Part shown: positions 7,743 to 58,316 of the stretch, in pieces | Layout: every line of letters starts with the position of its first letter | Numbering within the stretch: position 1 is the stretch's first letter | IMG/VR virus record: IMGVR_UViG_3300046660_000488 | Location: 408,640-472,639 of that record | Direction: 5' to 3' (one strand) | DNA length: 64,000 nt | DNA from: a virus | Notes under the pieces: generated by a model | Told to the model about the DNA's origin: nothing | Databases searched by the model: none | The model's input: only the letters and a program-made list of their open reading frames with translations | Position numbers and translations under genes: made by a program

Positions 7743-7828
7743 GAAATGTCCTAAAAAATGAAGGGGGAGCTTTCTGTTGACAGGCAAGCCCCGAAGGACC
7801 GGCTCCCTAACCCCGGAACCATCACCGC

Positions 7829-8026
7829 TTACGCGGCGACAGCGTAGTCCATGGCAACGTTGTCGTTGGCATTTACAATTGTGAACTGATCGTCGGCCGT
7901 GTCTTGCCGGATATCTCGCAAACCCTTTACCGCCGCGAATCGATGCTGGTCACCCCCACTTAGAAACCCATCGCGGACGATGGGCTTGTATGGTGGAGGT
8001 GCGGGGAATCGCACCCCGGTCTTCAT
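7829..8026 (-). CDS. hypothetical small protein
   Basis: A 65-aa ORF. It is preceded on the minus strand by a CTTAAATAC box and a TGGTAAACCA palindrome. Confidence 0.3.
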   Translation of the reverse strand: MKTGVRFPAPPPYKPIVRDGFLSGGDQHRFAAVKGLRDIRQDTADDQFTIVNANDNVAMDYAVAA

Positions 8027-8091
8027 CGGCTTATTACAGTCTGGTCATCAATATCGTCTGTATTTAAGCATGGTTTACCAAATGGCACAAG

Positions 8092-8556
8092 CTAAATCGA
8101 ATTCTCGTCCATTTTGGTGATCCGCTTGGCGGCCAAGGACTTTTTGCGTTCCTTTTCCGACTGGTGCGCGCGGTACACAATGCACGGACCCATCCAGCCA
8201 TATGGCCCCACGAACAGTGCGGTGATCAGCCACCAGTCTTGGTTTTTAACGAACCACGGGATGTGGTGCGTGACCGTCAGCATGCCCAGCGTACCGAAGA
8301 ACACGAGCAGCAGAAAAGTCGGGCCGAACGTGATGATCTCAGACCTGATCCACCGGCGCCGAGCATCTTGTTCGTCCGGGGTCACCAGCAGACCAAGCTC
8401 GTCTTCCAGCATGGCCTGTCGTTCGGCCATCGCGCAGACCTTCTTGAACCAGTGGCGGTCGTTGATGCCAATGGGGCACGGTCCGGTCTCCGGCGTCCAC
8501 GAGACGAAATCGGCGACGATCTTCTGAGCCCGGTCGGCCACCACGGGTTTCATCGG
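8092..8556 (-). CDS. membrane protein with two predicted TM helices
   Basis: The start at MKPVVADRAQ has its ATG overlapping the serS stop (ATGA). Hydrophobic stretches are IITFGPTFLLLVFFGTLGML and WWLITALFVGPYGWMGPCIVY. Confidence 0.45.
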   Translation of the reverse strand, partial: PMKPVVADRAQKIVADFVSWTPETGPCPIGINDRHWFKKVCAMAERQAMLEDELGLLVTPDEQDARRRWIRSEIITFGPTFLLLVFFGTLGMLTVTHHIPWFVKNQDWWLITALFVGPYGWMGPCIVYRAHQSEKERKKSLAAKRITKMDENSI

Positions 8557-10209: not shown

Positions 10210-11156
10210 AGGCCGACCAGCCAAGCGGCATCGTGCGAAATCCGGGTGTCGAAGATCGAGAATTCCGTGATGGTCTTGGGGACCTCGAAGCCGATGCCAC
10301 GCAGTTGGGTCGCGATGTTCTCACAGCTTCCCTTGAACCTTTCGTACGTGCCGTCGTATTTCCGGTAGGTGACCATCATGACGTAGGTGTCGTCGCTGAT
10401 TTTCTTGAAGGCATTCCGTGAGACGTGGGCGTCGAGATCGTAGGCGGCGGCGCGAAGGCCTTCGATCCGGTCGTCGCTGACCACCACGTTGAAGTGGGCC
10501 TCAAAATAGCACGCCGGGGGCATCGCCTGACGACTGTGGCTATTGGACGGAGCCGCCGGATGCCACGGAACAGTCTCGATTTTCTGGCGGGCCACGTTAT
10601 AGCCGCGTTCGACCAGATCATCCTTGATCCGGCTCACTTCAAGGAACGCCGAGCGGTTGTCGCCCATGTGGACCGACGAGGTCTGGGCGTCGAGCATAAC
10701 GGTCTCGCCATGTTGGTTGTGCAGGTCGATCAGCAGCGGCTTGACGCCGATCTCCGCGCAGTCGGCCTTGTACTGCTCGATGTTCAGGCCACCCTCGCCC
10801 GGCGAGACGGTGACGTGGATTTCGTAGGGGAGCGGGTAGGTGACGTCGCGCTCGCGGGTCTGAAGTTCGTCCCAGTACTGGGCCTTCTTCATCATCATCG
10901 ACCCGATGTCGTCGTGGCTGTAGCCCAACTGGTAGGCGACACTCAGCGCGCAGAGGATGACGTCGGCCGTCTCTTCAAGGATGCGCTCGGAGGTGACGAA
11001 CCGGTGGGTCGTGGTCGGCACGTTGTCGAAGGGCAGGACGGCCTTGGCCAGTTCGCCGACTTCTTCAGCCGTCTTCAGGGCCTTTTCGGTCAGGGTCTTC
11101 TTATCCTTGGCGGACAGCGCGGCGATATAGTCGAAAATCTCGGGTTTCATGACCAC
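10203..11156 (-). CDS. MazG-like nucleotide pyrophosphohydrolase domain protein with an unknown C-terminal domain
   Basis: The N-terminus EEVGELAKAVL...ILEETADVILCALSVAYQLG resembles the all-alpha MazG/NTP-PPase fold. Confidence 0.45.
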   Translation of the reverse strand: MVMKPEIFDYIAALSAKDKKTLTEKALKTAEEVGELAKAVLPFDNVPTTTHRFVTSERILEETADVILCALSVAYQLGYSHDDIGSMMMKKAQYWDELQTRERDVTYPLPYEIHVTVSPGEGGLNIEQYKADCAEIGVKPLLIDLHNQHGETVMLDAQTSSVHMGDNRSAFLEVSRIKDDLVERGYNVARQKIETVPWHPAAPSNSHSRQAMPPACYFEAHFNVVVSDDRIEGLRAAAYDLDAHVSRNAFKKISDDTYVMMVTYRKYDGTYERFKGSCENIATQLRGIGFEVPKTITEFSIFDTRISHDAAWLVGLK

Positions 11157-11428
11157 CTCAATTTGAAAAGTGTGAATTTACTCAAATCGTCTGAACTGAA
11201 TTCAATAGTTGTGTCTTGCATCATGCGAAACTGGTCTGTGTACGTATAGTACACTGCATGATACTTGAAGTTGTTCTCTTCGGACCATTCTTTGAATTCT
11301 TCGGTGAGTTCAAGCTTGACGCCGAGTTCTGTCGTAATGGACAGGCCATTGGCGCGATGAACCGGAGCGGCAACCAGCGTCGCTACGTCCGGGCCAACTT
11401 TCATCCTGAATTTTCCGCGAACGCTCAT
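11147..11428 (-). CDS. hypothetical protein
   Basis: A 93-aa ORF. A TTGGTTTACCAA palindrome lies 16-27 nt upstream. Confidence 0.4.
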   Translation of the reverse strand: MSVRGKFRMKVGPDVATLVAAPVHRANGLSITTELGVKLELTEEFKEWSEENNFKYHAVYYTYTDQFRMMQDTTIEFSSDDLSKFTLFKLRWS

Positions 11429-29398: not shown

Positions 29399-29624
29399 CC
29401 TGACCGACCGCGAATGGATTCGCACGCTGGTCGCGCACGACATGCGCGCCTACGCTCTGGCTGATGCGCTGGCTGACGGTCCCAAGGTCCGCGCCGACAT
29501 CGCCCAAGGTACGTCCAGCGTCATGAACGACATGATCCGCGCCGAGTACGTCACCGAGCAAGACGGTCTCTTCGATCTGACGGAAGACGGCCGCACGTTT
29601 TTCAAGCCCAAGGGTACAGCATGA
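29382..29624 (+). CDS. hypothetical small protein
   Basis: An 80-aa ORF. An internal ATG of the longer track ORF was chosen to avoid overlap with the upstream gene. Confidence 0.35.
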   Translation: MPHLTDLTDREWIRTLVAHDMRAYALADALADGPKVRADIAQGTSSVMNDMIRAEYVTEQDGLFDLTEDGRTFFKPKGTA

Positions 29625-30115
29625 AGCTGGCAATCATCATTCCGTCGCGGTTCATGGACCAGACCTTCGACAGCGTGGCGGCCGTCCGCTCGCTGATCGA
29701 ACGCTTCGGGCGCCCGGTGAAGGACACCGACGAATTCGAGGGTGAATTCTCGTGGTCTTACGAAGACACCATGGCGGACAACGATTTCACCCGTCGCGCC
29801 GTCTACATCTACCTGACCGACAACGCGGAATTCGAAACCGCGCTGGTGGAAATGGTATCGGACCATGAACACGTCCGCATCGAATTCACCGATCTGGGCA
29901 ACCCCAACCCGGCGTTCTTGGTCGTCGGCGGCCTGCTGGACAAGGTGCAAGCCGGACCTCCGGTCTTCAAGGCCACGCCCACGGTTGTCGGCCTCTATCC
30001 GACGCGCACCAAGGCGCGAGAAGCGTGGAAGGCCGCCTCGTGGTCGAACGTGGACAACGCCCACGCTCGCTACCTGATCATCCCGCTCAACGGCTTCGAT
30101 TTTCTGAGGGACTGA
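29621..30115 (+). CDS. hypothetical protein
   Basis: A 164-aa ORF. Confidence 0.45.
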   Translation: MKLAIIIPSRFMDQTFDSVAAVRSLIERFGRPVKDTDEFEGEFSWSYEDTMADNDFTRRAVYIYLTDNAEFETALVEMVSDHEHVRIEFTDLGNPNPAFLVVGGLLDKVQAGPPVFKATPTVVGLYPTRTKAREAWKAASWSNVDNAHARYLIIPLNGFDFLRD

Positions 30116-31142: not shown

Positions 31143-31159
31143 TTTTCGTTTACCAGATT

Positions 31160-33088
31160 TTGGTTTACCACAATGGTATGGCCATGGTACTCGATGGAGA
31201 GTTATTAACCATCGAGGCTTCTATGCCGCATTTCCTTCAAACCATTCTCGGTTTCTGGTGGGTTCTGCCCATCCTGCTGGCCATCATTTTCTGGCCGATC
31301 ACATTCCGCCTGTTCGGGGTCATCCTCGTTCCGCAGGACAAGATCGGCATCGTCACCAAGAAATTCCGTCTGATCGGTGAAGACATCCGCCTGCCGGACG
31401 GCGCCCTCGTGGCTCTGAAGGGTGAAGCTGGCATTCAGGCCGACTGTCTCGCACCCGGCCTGCACCTCTGGTATTGGCCGTGGCAGTACGACATCAACCT
31501 GTCGCCCTTCACGACGATCAAGGAAGGCCATGTCGGCATCGTCGAGGCCAATGACGGTCTGCCCATCCAAGTCGGCCGGGTTCTGGCCCGCACGGTCAAG
31601 GAAGCCGACTCGTTCCAAGACGCGCGCGCCTTCCTGACCAACGGCGGCCAGCGCGGTCCTCAGATCGACGCCATCCGCCCCGGCACGTACCGGATCAACA
31701 CGGCGCTGTTCTCCATCCGCGTCGTCCCGGCCACGCAGATTCCGGAAAACAAGGTCGGCCTCGTCACCACCTACGACGGCACGTCTCTGCCGACCGGCGA
31801 CATCGCGGGTCCGGAAGTCACGGGCCACCACAGCTTCCAAGACGGCCAAGCCTTCATCGGCGCGGGCGGCTACAAGGGTCGCCAAGAGCAGGTCATTCTG
31901 GCCGGTACGTACTACCACAATCCGAACTTCGTTTCGGTTGAGTTGGTCGATCTGGTGAGCGTGCCCATCGGTTACGTCGGCGTCGTCAACGCCTTCGTCG
32001 GCAAGATTCCGCTCGACAAGGAAGTCAGCGATATCCACGCCAACATCGTGCAGCGCGGCTTCAAGGGCGTGTGGGACAAGGCGCTCGATCCGGGCAAGTA
32101 CCCGATGAACACCTACACCCATAAGGTGGAAATGGTCCCGACCACGAACATCGTGCTCAACTGGGCGGGCGCCAAGACCGAGAGCCACGCTCTCGACCGC
32201 AACCTCTCGACCATCACGGTGCGTTCGGCGGATGGTTTCTCGTTCAACCTCGACGTCTCGCAGATCATCCACATCGCTCCGGATGACGCTTCGAAGGTCA
32301 TCGCCCGCTTCGGCTCGATGCAAAACCTCGTCACGCAGGTTCTGGAACCGCTGATCGGCAACTACTTCCGCAACTCGGCTCAGGCCTCCGACATCATCCA
32401 ATTCCTGTCGGGCCGCGCTGAAGAGCAGAAGAAGGCCAAGGAGTGCATCGACGCGGCGATCACCGCCTACGCCGTGCAGTCCGTGGACACCCTGATCGGC
32501 GACATCGTGCCACCGGAGGAACTGATGAAGACCCTGACCGACCGGAAGGTCGCTCAGCAACGCATCGAAACCTTCAAGCAGCAGGAAGCCTCGGAAGTGG
32601 CCCGCCAGTCGCTGGAAGAGTCCAAGTCGAAGGCTGACACCCAAGGTCGCGTCGTTGACGCCCAGCGGGCCGTGGAAGTGGCCGAACTGGACGCCAAGGC
32701 GAAGGTCAAGAAGGCCAGCGGTGACGCTGAGTCCAAGACCATCAACGCCAAGGCTGACGCCGAGGTTCTGACCATGGTCGGTGAAGCGACGGCGGCCCAG
32801 AAACTGGCGGTCGGTAACGCCGAAGCCACGGTTCTGCAAGCCAAGGTCGAAGCGGTCGGCAAGGAAGCCTACGCCCAGATGCAAATCTTCGGCGATCTGG
32901 CGGTCAACAAGACCCAACTGGTTCCTCTCGTCCAAGCCGGTGGCAATGGCGAGGGCGGTGGCTCTCTGATCGACGCCATGTTGGGCGCCCTGCTGGCCAA
33001 GGAAGTTGGCGGTGACACGACCAAGCAGGAGATCGCGCGTCTCCAGCGCCTGTCGGGCATCACGCCTCCGGGCGGCAAGTCCGAGTAA
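31160..33088 (+). CDS. flotillin-like SPFH/band-7 membrane protein (the start may be at 31205)
   Basis: There is an N-terminal TM segment (ILGFWWVLPILLAIIFWPITF) and a long SPFH-like core. The C-terminus is a coiled-coil with flotillin-type Ala/Glu/Lys repeats (AEVAELDAKAKVKKASGDAESKTINAKADAEV...). Confidence 0.65.
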   Translation: MVYHNGMAMVLDGELLTIEASMPHFLQTILGFWWVLPILLAIIFWPITFRLFGVILVPQDKIGIVTKKFRLIGEDIRLPDGALVALKGEAGIQADCLAPGLHLWYWPWQYDINLSPFTTIKEGHVGIVEANDGLPIQVGRVLARTVKEADSFQDARAFLTNGGQRGPQIDAIRPGTYRINTALFSIRVVPATQIPENKVGLVTTYDGTSLPTGDIAGPEVTGHHSFQDGQAFIGAGGYKGRQEQVILAGTYYHNPNFVSVELVDLVSVPIGYVGVVNAFVGKIPLDKEVSDIHANIVQRGFKGVWDKALDPGKYPMNTYTHKVEMVPTTNIVLNWAGAKTESHALDRNLSTITVRSADGFSFNLDVSQIIHIAPDDASKVIARFGSMQNLVTQVLEPLIGNYFRNSAQASDIIQFLSGRAEEQKKAKECIDAAITAYAVQSVDTLIGDIVPPEELMKTLTDRKVAQQRIETFKQQEASEVARQSLEESKSKADTQGRVVDAQRAVEVAELDAKAKVKKASGDAESKTINAKADAEVLTMVGEATAAQKLAVGNAEATVLQAKVEAVGKEAYAQMQIFGDLAVNKTQLVPLVQAGGNGEGGGSLIDAMLGALLAKEVGGDTTKQEIARLQRLSGITPPGGKSE

Positions 33089-33108: not shown

Positions 33109-33139
33109 AAGGCCCCGGAGAAATCCGGGGCCTTTTTCT
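33109..33139 (+). terminator. rho-independent terminator between convergent genes
   Basis: A perfect 8-bp stem GGCCCCGG-agaaat-CCGGGGCC followed by TTTTTCTT. Confidence 0.55.
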
Positions 33140-33636
33140 TAGCTGAACCGCAGTTTGAAATAGGTCTGGTCAGTCTCATTCTCCAAGATGGTCACGAACC
33201 GGTTCTTGCTCGCGTCGGCCACGAAAAATCGCCAGTCGCCCTTGGTGAATTCGTTGCACCACATGATGATCTCGTCGTCACCACCCTCCACAACGACCCT
33301 GTAGGCCCGTGGACCGGCCTGTTCGCACATGTAGACCAGCATGTCCCGTTGGTCTCTCACGACGTCCACGGCCTCTATGAGGGCGTTGAACGAGTTGAAG
33401 CCTTTGCGGACGATGCCGTTGTAGTGTTTTTCGAGATCGTTCCAGTCATCGACTGAAATGTGGGTCGAGTTCAAACGCCCCATGATCTCGTAGAATTTCT
33501 CCTGATATTTCTTGGTGTGATAGGCTGGCGAGCCTTGCAGGTCACTCAGGGACGACGGGTGAGCGAACCATTGCTCCCACGGAACGTCGTAAACGATCAC
33601 GCTGCTCTCCGAACGAAAATCAAGGGATAAATACAT
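33139..33636 (-). CDS. hypothetical protein
   Basis: The start was chosen at MYLSLDFRSE. A GGAG SD is adjacent. Confidence 0.4.
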   Translation of the reverse strand: MYLSLDFRSESSVIVYDVPWEQWFAHPSSLSDLQGSPAYHTKKYQEKFYEIMGRLNSTHISVDDWNDLEKHYNGIVRKGFNSFNALIEAVDVVRDQRDMLVYMCEQAGPRAYRVVVEGGDDEIIMWCNEFTKGDWRFFVADASKNRFVTILENETDQTYFKLRFS

Positions 33637-33661
33637 ACTCCATGCCACTTGGAGAACCAAA

Positions 33662-35332
33662 TTGATTTCGTTCAGCACCGTCGCCGCAGAGGTTTTCCAA
33701 ATCCTCCGGGCGTTCAATTACACGGTCAAAATGTACGGGGATGAAGGCAACCGGGTTTACGAACCCGAGGATGCTCGACGCCTGTTCGCCGAGACCACCA
33801 AAGACGACGCTGACACTCCAACGAACGGCAACCTTTTTGTGTCGTTGGTCGAGTCCGGCGAGAACAGCAGCATCCGCCTTTTCATCAGCAAGTCCGTGGA
33901 TTTGGCCGACGTCGTCGGTCTTATGGACTCGCTGCGTTCGTGCGCGAACAAGTTCAGCATGCTGTTCAACGCTCGTGAAACCGGCCGCGAAATTGAACCC
34001 ACGGACTTTGCCAGCAGTGCATCCGTTACAGAAGACGAGGACAACTATACTATGGGAACGGATATCATTCTGGAAGGCATGTACGGCACGACGAAGTCGT
34101 CCTACCTGAAGCTGGAGAACGCTCGCATGATCGTTCGCCACACCAAGCCGGTCAAGGAAGACGTCGTTGGCGGCCGTAGCCGCAACATCAAGGGCATCTT
34201 CGTCGAAGACGCTCAGGGCCAGCGTTTCCTGTTCCCGACCCGCCAACTGGCTCCGGCGCGCGCGATGACGCAGCACGTCAACCAAGGCGGCAATTTCTAC
34301 GACCAAGTCGGCGCCCAGATCACCCGCATGGCTCAGGACTATTCCAGCCTCGCGCAGGCTTCGAACTACATCGGCGGCGAGGCCATGGCGCTCGGCGAGT
34401 CGGCCCAGCCGATCCGCGAGAACTGCCGTCGTCAGATGAAGGAAATGCGGAAGTGCTTCGAGCGCCTGTCGCGCGAGAGCGGCTACCTCAATGAGAGCCA
34501 GCGCATCGCTGAACTGCCGCAGGGAACCCTGAACGAGGCTGACGAGGCCCTGTCGGACGAAATCCGCGAGACGATGTACGTGGAAGGTCGCGAGATCGAC
34601 GAGACGATCATCGTGGCGGTCACCGAAGCGGTCAAGAAGTGCCGCTGCGAAGACGAGGCCATGGCTGAGGATGTCGAGCCCGCTGTCGATGACGACGGTC
34701 TGGAAGAGAACGCCGACGAAGACATCGTGGACGAAGAAGCTGAAATGGAAGGCTGGATCAAGTCCGAAGCCGTCCAAGAGTTCAGCGAATGGCTGGACCA
34801 ATTCTCGCCGGAAGCCGTTCTGGCCGAGCGTGACGAAGAAGAAGAGGACGATGAGGCAGAAGTGATCGAAGAGCGTGGAAGCATGGACGATTACCCGGCC
34901 CACGACGACGGCAACGACGCCCGCGCCACCACCGCCGATCTGGAGGACGCGGTCAATACGTTCGACGTCGAGAAGTTCCTTGCTTCGGAAGGCGAAGAGT
35001 TTGGCTGGGGCGAGCATGAGGACGACAAGAAGTACAGCCGCAAGTTCATCCGTCGCCTCGTGGCCTATTACCTGCAAAGCATCGTCGAGTACAACACCGG
35101 CGCCAAGACAGAAATCTCCGACGAATGGGTTGACGCAGTCTGGCCGGACGTTGAGCAAGTTCTGAACAACGGTGGATACGAGCTTAGCGAAGGAAAACTG
35201 ACGCGATCCAACGTTCTGATCCCGACCGATCAGGGCGAAGACTTCAAGCGCGAAGTCGAGGACCCCACGGCAGACGCTGGAAGCATCGACCGTCTTCGTG
35301 CTCTGGCTGGTTTGCAGGGCCGCTTCCAATAA
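33662..35332 (+). CDS. large acidic protein (candidate prohead scaffold/core protein)
   Basis: A 556-aa ORF with an extremely acidic C-terminal half carrying many (L/I)xE sites. A GATAAATAC box lies 30 nt upstream. The start codon is TTG, preceded by a GGAGAA SD. Confidence 0.45.
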   Translation: MISFSTVAAEVFQILRAFNYTVKMYGDEGNRVYEPEDARRLFAETTKDDADTPTNGNLFVSLVESGENSSIRLFISKSVDLADVVGLMDSLRSCANKFSMLFNARETGREIEPTDFASSASVTEDEDNYTMGTDIILEGMYGTTKSSYLKLENARMIVRHTKPVKEDVVGGRSRNIKGIFVEDAQGQRFLFPTRQLAPARAMTQHVNQGGNFYDQVGAQITRMAQDYSSLAQASNYIGGEAMALGESAQPIRENCRRQMKEMRKCFERLSRESGYLNESQRIAELPQGTLNEADEALSDEIRETMYVEGREIDETIIVAVTEAVKKCRCEDEAMAEDVEPAVDDDGLEENADEDIVDEEAEMEGWIKSEAVQEFSEWLDQFSPEAVLAERDEEEEDDEAEVIEERGSMDDYPAHDDGNDARATTADLEDAVNTFDVEKFLASEGEEFGWGEHEDDKKYSRKFIRRLVAYYLQSIVEYNTGAKTEISDEWVDAVWPDVEQVLNNGGYELSEGKLTRSNVLIPTDQGEDFKREVEDPTADAGSIDRLRALAGLQGRFQ

Positions 35333-48392: not shown

Positions 48393-48459
48393 CATTCGTT
48401 CGAGGGTTCGAACCCCGGACCTCCGCTTCCGCGACGCTCTCCCACTGAGCTAAACGACC
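48393..48459 (-). tRNA. tRNA-like element (D-arm and T-arm canonical; anticodon region too short)
   Basis: On the minus strand: GGTCGTT-TA-GCTC-AGTGGGA-GAGC ... CGGGG-TTCGAAC-CCTCG-AACGAAT. Six of seven acceptor pairs form. Only 18 nt lie between the D-stem and T-stem, where about 22 are expected. Confidence 0.3.
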
Positions 48460-49357
48460 AACTCGCCATGCTATCCCCGGTTTGGTGGCCACCTCACCGA
48501 GGAATTCCTGTGGCCGTTCATCACGGCCGAATGTTCCGGCTACTGGGGGCTCTTTTTCACGAGTGGTCTAATCTCGCTACTAGACAGCCCTTTCCACCGT
48601 GGACGTTAGACCGAATGGGGACCAACCCATCCTTTTTCACGCCCGTCTTGCTTGCGGGTGGGACGCGACCCCCACTGTCTGCATTGCCAACCGGATGAAC
48701 CGGGCTCTCCGCAAATTCTGTTGCCGTTTCCGGCGAATGGCTGACACGGGCAATCCTACTTCCCACCGTCGCGGGTGTCGGATGCTCCTATGAAACCATG
48801 TCGGCCTCGAACCGATCCTCCCCCGATCAGGGGGCACACTACCCGTTGTGCTACAGCTTCCGTGTCCAAAGGGAGTCTATAGCCTCCCAGAGGTTGTTGC
48901 TCATGCGAGCGAATTTTGACCAGCGATTGACATCAGCAGCGCTACTTCAATCACGAACGAGGTGGGGGCGCCAGTCCCCACTTTCCCCAGTGTTTGCTGG
49001 GGTCTTATAAGCTGATAGATCACTCGTTCTACGCTTGGTCGTTCAGCAGTCGGCGCCGCTCAAGAGACAGCACCGTCGCCTACACTTGGATGCCCATGCG
49101 GGCAAATGGTTATGCGCGGGCGGATTTATACCACCGGCCTCCCCGTTGGAAACGGGCTCTCTCGCCCTCCGACCGTTTACTGACAGGTGCGTTTGCAACC
49201 GCGCCCTGCGTTCAACGTATCGAAGCCCAACGACGTCATGGTCACATCCGACTAACGGCGGGTAGTTTACCCCATGCCAGTTCGTTGCCTGAGCTACGCG
49301 CAACTTTGATGCCCATGCGGGCAAATTGGTACGCAGATGGGGTTTCCCGAGGAAACT

Positions 49358-49424
49358 ATACCGGTTGGATTCGAACCAACGCGCACGAGCAATGCTCGCT
49401 GCTCTCCCGCTGAGCTACGGCCCT
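49358..49424 (-). tRNA. tRNA-like element (canonical 5' half and T-arm; acceptor 3' strand mismatched)
   Basis: On the minus strand: AGGGCCG-TA-GCTC-AGCGGGA-GAGC ... GTTGG-TTCGAAT-CCAAC. The middle is CGAGC-ATT-GCTCG, a 3-nt loop rather than an anticodon loop. Confidence 0.3.
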
Positions 49425-58062: not shown

Positions 58063-58254
58063 CTATCCATTGATGACGCGGACGTACACGGCTCGAAGAC
58101 GTCCGCTGGAGGTCATCTTTACGCGGAAAGTCACCACCTGTCCTTCGGAGTAGCACTTGCCTTTGCCGATGAGAAAAATGGGTCCGCCACCATCGGACGG
58201 GGTGATCATCCCGAAACCGCGAGAGTCTTTGAACCACTTGATTTGCCCGAACAT
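58063..58254 (-). CDS. cold-shock protein (CspA family)
   Basis: MFGQIKWFKDSRGFGMITPSDGGGPIF carries the RNP1-like KGFGFI motif. Confidence 0.65.
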   Translation of the reverse strand: MFGQIKWFKDSRGFGMITPSDGGGPIFLIGKGKCYSEGQVVTFRVKMTSSGRLRAVYVRVING

Positions 58255-58316
58255 GCGCGGGCCGGGGAGCGTAGGGGTCATCCCATCAGCCTACCAAATC
58301 TGGTAAACGAAACCCA

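Follow-up and report, generated by a model that had tools for sequence, protein, structure and literature searches.

The bacterial flotillins FloT/YuaG and YqiK (SPFH2, or 'p-flotillins') combine an N-terminal membrane anchor, an SPFH domain and Ala/Glu-rich C-terminal helices. Hinderhofer et al. defined these prokaryotic flotillins partly by their operon link to NfeD while SPFH6-12 remained small groups that lack NfeD and were undocumented (PMC2636767). The Escherichia coli proteins HflK/C and QmcA, located around or near the protease FtsH, are likewise membrane-anchored SPFH proteins, and they form domes of 24-26 subunits. Every solved SPFH complex closes into a ring or dome, and among SPFH assemblies the vault has been singled out as the one not associated with membranes (PMC12624060). 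Here, we describe an SPFH gene at positions 31160-33088 (+) of a 64,000-nucleotide stretch (the window) of the IMG/VR virus record IMGVR_UViG_3300046660_000488 (positions 408,640-472,639 of that record). We propose, with a probability of roughly 60% for the reading as a whole, that it encodes an inner-membrane SPFH-superfamily scaffold of a subtype distinct from the flotillins, which would form a membrane-bound cage.

The carriage of SPFH-superfamily scaffolds of bacterial origin by viruses has precedents in T4-like phages, PHROG 200, giant-virus Band-7 proteins and gut-phage forms of MVP (major vault protein). SPFH open reading frames (ORFs) of the T4-like phages RB43, 44RR and Aeh1 were tabulated in 2006 (PMC1524935), PHROG 200 is an existing phage SPFH group, and BFVD holds many viral Band-7 proteins; the original prediction, which regarded phage-encoded flotillins as very uncommon, was therefore overstated on this point. 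The purpose of phage SPFH genes was still called unclear in a 2026 paper (PMC13239085). The viral SPFH proteins in BFVD are 280-500 amino acids (aa) long and match our structural model weakly (best E=6e-3), and the repeat-bearing subfamily described below is rare in sequenced phages (8 of 50,697 records). PSI-BLAST with human MVP recovers the 'first viral MVPs', from the gut phages ctOa11 and ct2Ri15, at about 23% identity, and the preprint on them makes no mention of Band 7, SPFH or a transmembrane segment (bioRxiv 10.1101/2023.11.10.566534). The protein studied here is the reverse case, being Band_7-positive, anchored and MVP-like only in predicted structure. True MVP homologues have been reported from a few bacteria (bioRxiv 10.1101/872010; PMC3762200) and from Asgard archaea, and MVP is said to lack clear prokaryotic ancestry (PMC12962969). 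While phage SPFH genes and phage MVP-like genes are thus already known, we found no description in the open-access literature, for either bacteria or phages, of a Band_7-positive family that combines a membrane anchor with MVP-type repeats, and the anchored hybrid appears to be new within that literature.

The overall layout that had been read from the sequence, namely an ORF of 640 aa with an N-terminal transmembrane helix, an SPFH/band-7-like core and a long Ala/Glu/Lys-rich C-terminal region, is borne out by our analysis. The maximal ORF comprises 642 codons counted from TTG 31160 (end coordinate including the stop codon), which is near enough to the predicted length. Residues 25-57 are hydrophobic, with Kyte-Doolittle values of up to 2.3 in 19-residue windows, and are helical in an AlphaFold2 monomer model built on a 54-sequence alignment. 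Averaged over 41 family members, the N-terminal flank of this segment contains 0.3 and the C-terminal flank 2.4 Lys and Arg residues, which by the positive-inside rule suggests an N-out/C-in topology. The SPFH core is recognised by Pfam Band_7 (PF01145) over residues 294-477 with E=5.2e-24 (85.7 bits, the cut-off being 23.6), so an SPFH domain is found by profile search, and the same domain lies above threshold in the phage relative P0003 and the bacterial relative P0014. The C-terminal part of the model is predicted to form helices at residues 446-513, 526-558 and 560-574 (634-aa numbering), and residues 480-600 are rich in Ala (20%), Val (12%), Lys (10%) and Glu (9%). In the segment of the Gly-rich linker and C-terminal helix, a GGxLVDVLLGNL consensus is kept across the family.

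What had been overlooked is the region between the anchor and the Pfam-detected SPFH core, where about 240 residues make up a tandem array of β-repeats of approximately 75 aa. Comparison of sub-blocks of the family alignment with hhalign relates the second and third repeats (R2-R3) with 99.4% probability (E=3.7e-21), and gives probabilities of 92.8% for R1-R2, 74.9% for R1-R3 and 93% for R2-R4. When the R2 and R3 units of 11 proteins are aligned (alignment A2), they are nearly gapless and have 11 invariant positions in common. R4 leads straight on into the SPFH domain detected by Pfam. On this evidence the protein appears to carry four copies of the β-module that normally opens an SPFH domain, three of which are extra. 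The simplest reading would be that the first β-module of the SPFH domain has been amplified, because R1 reads like an SPFH N-terminus and R4 runs directly into the Pfam domain. A link between the repeats and canonical SPFH N-termini outside their own family is unproven: a repeat-unit profile aligned to E. coli QmcA with hhalign gave a probability of 0.3%, for which the single-sequence template makes a weak test.

Fold comparison places this array next to the eukaryotic vault. The AlphaFold2 model has a mean predicted local distance difference test score (pLDDT) of 66 and a predicted template modelling score (pTM) of 0.49, with pLDDT values of 80-91 in the repeat region. In a Foldseek search against the PDB, the top 16 matches were all MVP, including the R1-R7 crystal structures (E 1.7e-6 to 2.4e-4), followed by prohibitin and erlin at E≥0.06 and by flotillin structures at E 0.56-1.1 with a probability of ≤0.07. 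The predicted repeat array thus appears closer to the R-repeats of MVP than to any other solved structure, and the modelled domain order would match that of MVP, because MVP consists of repeats, an SPFH-like shoulder and a cap helix. Our protein, whose SPFH domain matches Pfam Band_7, has four units of about 75 aa, whereas MVP has nine repeats of about 55 aa. MVP is also soluble, with two 39-mer halves joined at their N-termini, whereas the protein of the window carries a conserved N-terminal anchor exactly where such halves would join.

The gene is a true member of an uncharacterised bacterial family annotated as 'SPFH domain-containing protein', exemplified by P0014 of Niveibacterium microcysteis (678 aa), with 53-63% identity over about 90% of the length. 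The bacterial members share the anchor, repeats, Band_7 domain and helix, and are stand-alone genes as well. Whereas the copy in the window has three extra repeats, the bacterial class of about 678 aa has four, the difference being exactly one further R2-type unit of 73 aa that lies between R2 and R3. With only the repeat region as query, an exhaustive HMMER search retrieved 1681 clusters (50% identity) at E≤1e-3, 235 of them at E≤1e-30; judged by sampled contexts the repeat family is mostly bacterial, and its repeat number is variable. Other members differ from the phage-encoded copy in having a C-terminal von Willebrand A (VWA) domain and far more repeats: the giant proteins P0121 and P0123 (about 1800 aa) contain 9-10 matched repeat stretches together with Band_7 and the C-terminal VWA. 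The repeat count of these giants appears to reach or exceed the nine of MVP, as judged by matched stretches rather than unit counts.

Based on these features, we propose the following hypothetical arrangement, in which (i) the helices of the protein would mediate its homo-oligomerisation to a closed ring or dome, by analogy with the solved SPFH complexes; (ii) the ring would contain about 22-33 subunits, a number extrapolated from the published regression of subunit number on CC1 length (y = 0.1782x + 10.22; PMC12624060) with either the model's 68-residue helix or its 129-residue helical stretch as input; (iii) the dome would sit on the cytoplasmic face of the host inner membrane, as the N-out/C-in orientation and the positive-inside rule suggest; (iv) the extra repeats would heighten its wall, giving a membrane-anchored 'half-vault'; and (v) the cage would fence off a membrane patch and its proteins during infection. 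Such a cage could gate the access of a membrane protease, for example FtsH, to its substrates; alternatively, it could stabilise the envelope through a long jumbo-phage cycle. Any role in infection is speculative.

Several observations weigh against this proposal. The SPFH core and the helices are of low confidence in the monomer model, and the N-out/C-in topology is a prediction from charge bias. There is no match to Pfam Vault or MVP-shoulder in the query (E≤1) or in the giant family members (E≤0.1), and neither the whole-protein profile (E≤1) nor the repeat-unit profile (E≤10) finds an MVP chain among PDB sequences, although the library searched contained such chains; the repeat-unit profile returned noise only. 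The similarity to MVP is therefore purely structural, with convergence or a shared generic β-module as alternatives, and we limit the claim to a protein that looks or works like MVP rather than one that is an MVP. Moreover, the neighbourhoods of the orthologues differ between phage groups, with no conserved partner gene or client found, so that what the protein does in infection is a guess.

A bolder extension, which we regard as possible but doubtful, is that the prokaryotic and phage family as a whole consists of membrane-anchored half-vaults, structural intermediates between SPFH domes and the free eukaryotic vault, and that huge phages build a tall inner-membrane chamber from them. If true, the family would supply the long-missing structural link from membrane SPFH domes to the free vault. 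In any case, a widespread anchored SPFH family with repeats apparently derived from the SPFH N-terminus, and predicted to resemble MVP, is a testable candidate for the evolution of the vault wall.

We consider it unlikely that the protein is specifically a modulator of host FtsH, caging the protease in the manner of HflK/C or QmcA to alter the turnover of phage and host membrane and regulatory proteins. HflK/C, QmcA/YbbK and prohibitins do associate with FtsH-type proteases (PMC2636767; PMC12624060), the flank charges suggest the cytoplasm-facing orientation of QmcA, and QmcA and HflC are among the few PDB sequence matches: phmmer with the protein against PDB sequences returned only QmcA (E=0.05), and the family profile reached QmcA at 4e-4. 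Sequence and fold matches to these proteins are weak, however, and they differ from the query in their length of 300-420 aa and their lack of repeats; HflK/C forms a hetero-oligomer in the periplasm, and the partner of QmcA is YbbJ, an NfeD protein. No NCBIfam model scored above its cut-off, hflC (TIGR01932) reaching 12.2 bits against the 134.4 required, and the gene is the sole SPFH ORF in the window, leaving no paralogue for a hetero-oligomer. The sequence gives no FtsH-specific pointer, and such a modulator would be a special case of the proposed scaffold, not another fold.

The original prediction went further and matched the architecture to FloT/YqiK, that is, to a genuine bacterial-type flotillin that could organise functional membrane microdomains. 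Part of the likeness stands: the protein is a membrane-anchored SPFH protein with an Ala/Glu/Lys-rich helical tail, shares with bacterial flotillins what is probably a cytoplasmic orientation, and its relatives are automatically named 'YqiK' (COG2268) by JGI. The best PDB sequence match of the family profile is also a flotillin, flotillin-2, but in its helical region only (E=1.7e-4). The part specific to flotillins does not stand. The Pfam Flot domain (PF15975), which detects E. coli YqiK as positive control at 6.4e-41, has no match in the query, in P0014 or in P0003 (E≤0.1-1); BLASTP of the query against YqiK aligned only the low-complexity Ala/Glu/Lys-rich helix (E=5e-4), and hhalign of the family profile against YqiK gave a probability of 1.8%. 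The three extra β-repeats have no flotillin counterpart, and the fold search ranked flotillin near the bottom. An NfeD-like partner, which the original prediction had suggested seeking nearby, adjoins neither side of the gene: Pfam NfeD, YqiJ_N and YqiJ_OB domains are absent from the five upstream and four downstream genes, while YqiJ, the operon partner of YqiK, matches YqiJ/NfeD-type domains as a control. Searching all 888 six-frame ORFs of the window with YqiJ and YbbJ by phmmer gave best E values of 0.3-0.7 and thus no partner. The bacterial homologues likewise stand alone without NfeD. Since the operon link is part of the definition of SPFH2 (PMC2636767), we consider a FloT/YqiK orthologue distinctly improbable. 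By the flotillin family's own criteria, the query and thousands of relatives that carry the automatic name 'YqiK' are not flotillins, and this label should be corrected.

We give similarly little credence to a cell-surface or envelope role in entry, superinfection exclusion or lysis timing in place of a general scaffold. The gene lies between packaging and structural genes, the large terminase (TerL) being encoded upstream of it and a virion structural protein (phrog_13484) downstream; PHROG 200 carries the label 'lipoprotein', and the authors of the 2026 phage paper speculated that an SPFH lipoprotein aids adsorption or DNA entry (PMC13239085). The protein of the window, however, has no lipobox or signal-peptide cleavage context, and its hydrophobic segment, which chromosomal homologues in bacteria share, is an anchor that is not cleaved. 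In related phages the gene shows no synteny with structural genes, and no defence family of PADLOC-DB matched the protein at E≤0.01.

With regard to its origin, homologues at 65-78% identity are located on contigs of 239-570 kb rich in hypothetical genes; these contigs encode ribonucleotide reductase, aminoacyl-tRNA synthetases, deoxynucleoside monophosphate (dNMP) kinase and a Gp23-like gene and therefore belong to huge phages. Homologues at 60-63% identity adjoin ribosomal-protein or housekeeping genes in bacteria. In a neighbour-joining tree, the window copy groups with P0002 and P0003-P0008 in a single clade inside the bacterial family. One huge-phage lineage acquired the gene from bacteria and has since maintained it under purifying selection. 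Outside this clade branch the 642-kb phage LR756502 and Vibrio phage Kuja, implying several captures. Pairwise ratios of nonsynonymous to synonymous substitution rates (dN/dS) within the phage clade are 0.09-0.31, values that are only rough because dS is partly saturated. At two of the loci, L006 and L011 (with P0007 and P0004, respectively), which represent a sub-group of huge phages, a conserved stretch has a class II aldolase-like gene before and a Peptidase_C93 gene after the SPFH gene, an arrangement absent from the window and from a third locus, L002.

The operator-like motif that had been noticed directly upstream of the gene is supported by its enrichment, its symmetry and its recurrence upstream of orthologues. 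Two copies, 15 bp apart, are located about 53-77 nt before the probable start codon. Allowing at most one mismatch, TGGTTTACCA occurs at eight sites in the window (1884, 8071, 11444, 22300, 31146, 31161, 58301 and 60665), compared with 1.4 expected, and none of 100 shuffles reached eight; the general form TGGTWWACCA has five exact sites against 0.08 expected, a number again reached by none of 100 shuffles. Of the eight sites, seven are located in gaps between protein-coding genes, and the copy at 8071 marks the 5′ edge of a transfer-messenger RNA (tmRNA) gene. L002 (22 kb) and L006 (18 kb) each contain a single GGTWWACC, located just ahead of the SPFH orthologue and accompanied, as in the window, by a further site at a distance of 14-15 bp, which is partial, and L011 carries a one-mismatch version; a pair of TGGTWWACCA-type sites upstream of the SPFH gene is thus conserved in at least three phages. 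The central WW is TT, AA or TA in different phages and hence not conserved in orientation, and the site is therefore functionally symmetric. We consider it a candidate operator, as the motif seems to fit the operator of a dimeric regulator better than a promoter hexamer. A scan for sigma-70 promoters and intrinsic terminators around the SPFH gene found no promoter-like site and no terminator-like sites above the level of shuffled sequences.

The genes adjacent to the motif are a TPR/glycosyltransferase-9-like gene (337-1857, -), the tmRNA gene, a gene for a 93-aa protein of unknown function (11147-11428, -), the SPFH gene and a gene for a cold-shock-domain protein (58063-58281, -). The tmRNA, cold-shock-domain and TPR/glycosyltransferase-like genes are accessories of cellular type, and the sites may mark a regulon in which a single phage regulator controls host-like auxiliary genes. 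That the SPFH gene is a recently transferred passenger without a role in the phage, as its close bacterial homologues (53-63% identity) and its absence from the TerL-related cultured jumbo phages Phosso and Atu_ph07 might suggest, is very improbable given its retention in a monophyletic set of at least eight diverged phage sequences on different contigs, its low dN/dS and its own upstream motif conserved in three phages. A phage clade with purifying selection and a conserved putative operator provides a defined system for asking what is gained by fencing off host membrane.

Translation probably starts at ATG 31223, giving 621 aa plus the stop codon, because a GAGG element lies 5 nt upstream and the N-termini of P0002 and P0003, the closest homologues, align there, at M22 of the 642-aa ORF. 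The upstream candidates ATG 31178 and ATG 31184 have no Shine-Dalgarno-like element, although the database copy (P0001, identical over all 634 aa) was called from ATG 31184. The GC content of the ORF at third and second codon positions (GC3 0.81, GC2 0.40) is like that of genuine genes in this window of 59% GC. The features are compiled in Table 1.

Table 1. Features of the SPFH gene, its upstream region and the tRNA-like sites of the window (positions refer to the 64,000-nucleotide window).
Feature	Position	Strand	Basis or remark
One-mismatch motif copy TCGTTTACCA	31146..31155	+	15 bp upstream of the exact site
Exact TGGTTTACCA site (general form TGGTWWACCA), operator-like	31161..31170	+	about 53-62 nt upstream of ATG 31223
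GAGG, Shine-Dalgarno-like	31214..31217	+	read from sequence; 5 nt before ATG 31223
Most likely coding sequence, 621 aa + stop	31223..33088	+	start alignment, GC3, dN/dS
N-terminal hydrophobic membrane anchor (residues 25-57 of 642-aa ORF)	31232..31330	+	hydropathy, AlphaFold helices
Predicted β-repeat R1, like canonical SPFH N-terminus (IGIVTKKF...PGLHLWYWPWQ)	31325..31513	+	hhalign; pLDDT ~61-85
Predicted β-repeat R2, ~75 aa, short helix	31514..31744	+	hhalign, A2; pLDDT 79-91
Predicted β-repeat R3, ~75 aa	31745..31969	+	hhalign, A2, AlphaFold
Predicted β-repeat R4, N-terminal β-module of SPFH domain proper	31970..32173	+	hhalign R2-R4; overlaps start of Band_7 match
SPFH / Band_7 domain (Pfam PF01145)	32039..32590	+	
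Long Ala/Lys/Glu-rich helical region, CC1/CC2-like, cap-helix-like	32519..32905	+	AlphaFold helices, composition, family-profile matches
Gly-rich linker and C-terminal amphipathic helix (GGNGEGGGSLIDAMLGALLAKEV...)	32906..33085	+	AlphaFold helix 595-623, low confidence
tRNA-like matches	48393-48459, 48791-48860, 49361-49420	-	Rfam / ARAGORN

On sequence grounds, the assignment of the window to a jumbo phage is solid. The neighbours of the SPFH gene include a T4-type TerL, a gp32-like single-stranded DNA-binding protein and UvsX/RecA, and the nearest relatives of TerL are those of Sinorhizobium phage Phosso (469 kb) and Agrobacterium phage Atu_ph07 (490 kb), at 56-57% aa identity. A megablast search of the 7-kb neighbourhood against the 50,697 phage records returned no match at the DNA level. 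The tmRNA gene at 7763-8099 (-) is of the permuted two-piece alphaproteobacterial type (Rfam RF01849, 114 bits, E=2.5e-30), with an RF04321 match of 121.7 bits over 7829-8055 within it; a 65-aa ORF called mechanically at 7829-8026 is really part of this gene. The tmRNA type suggests an alphaproteobacterial host, in agreement with the similarity of TerL to the Sinorhizobium and Agrobacterium jumbo phages.

A 164-aa DUF4170 protein (E=1.5e-13) is encoded at 29621-30115 (+), three genes before the SPFH gene. Downstream, 33662-35332 (+) encodes a very acidic 556-aa protein whose N-terminal 235 residues match PHROG 13484, 'virion structural protein' (2e-27), and overlaps the 5′ end, with the start codon, of the divergent gene 33139-33717 (-) by about 55 nt. 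Finally, a stretch without long ORFs at 45-50 kb contains two weak Rfam tRNA matches (37 and 33 bits) and an odd tRNA reported by ARAGORN with its anticodon undetermined; these sites may represent degenerate or unusual phage tRNAs.

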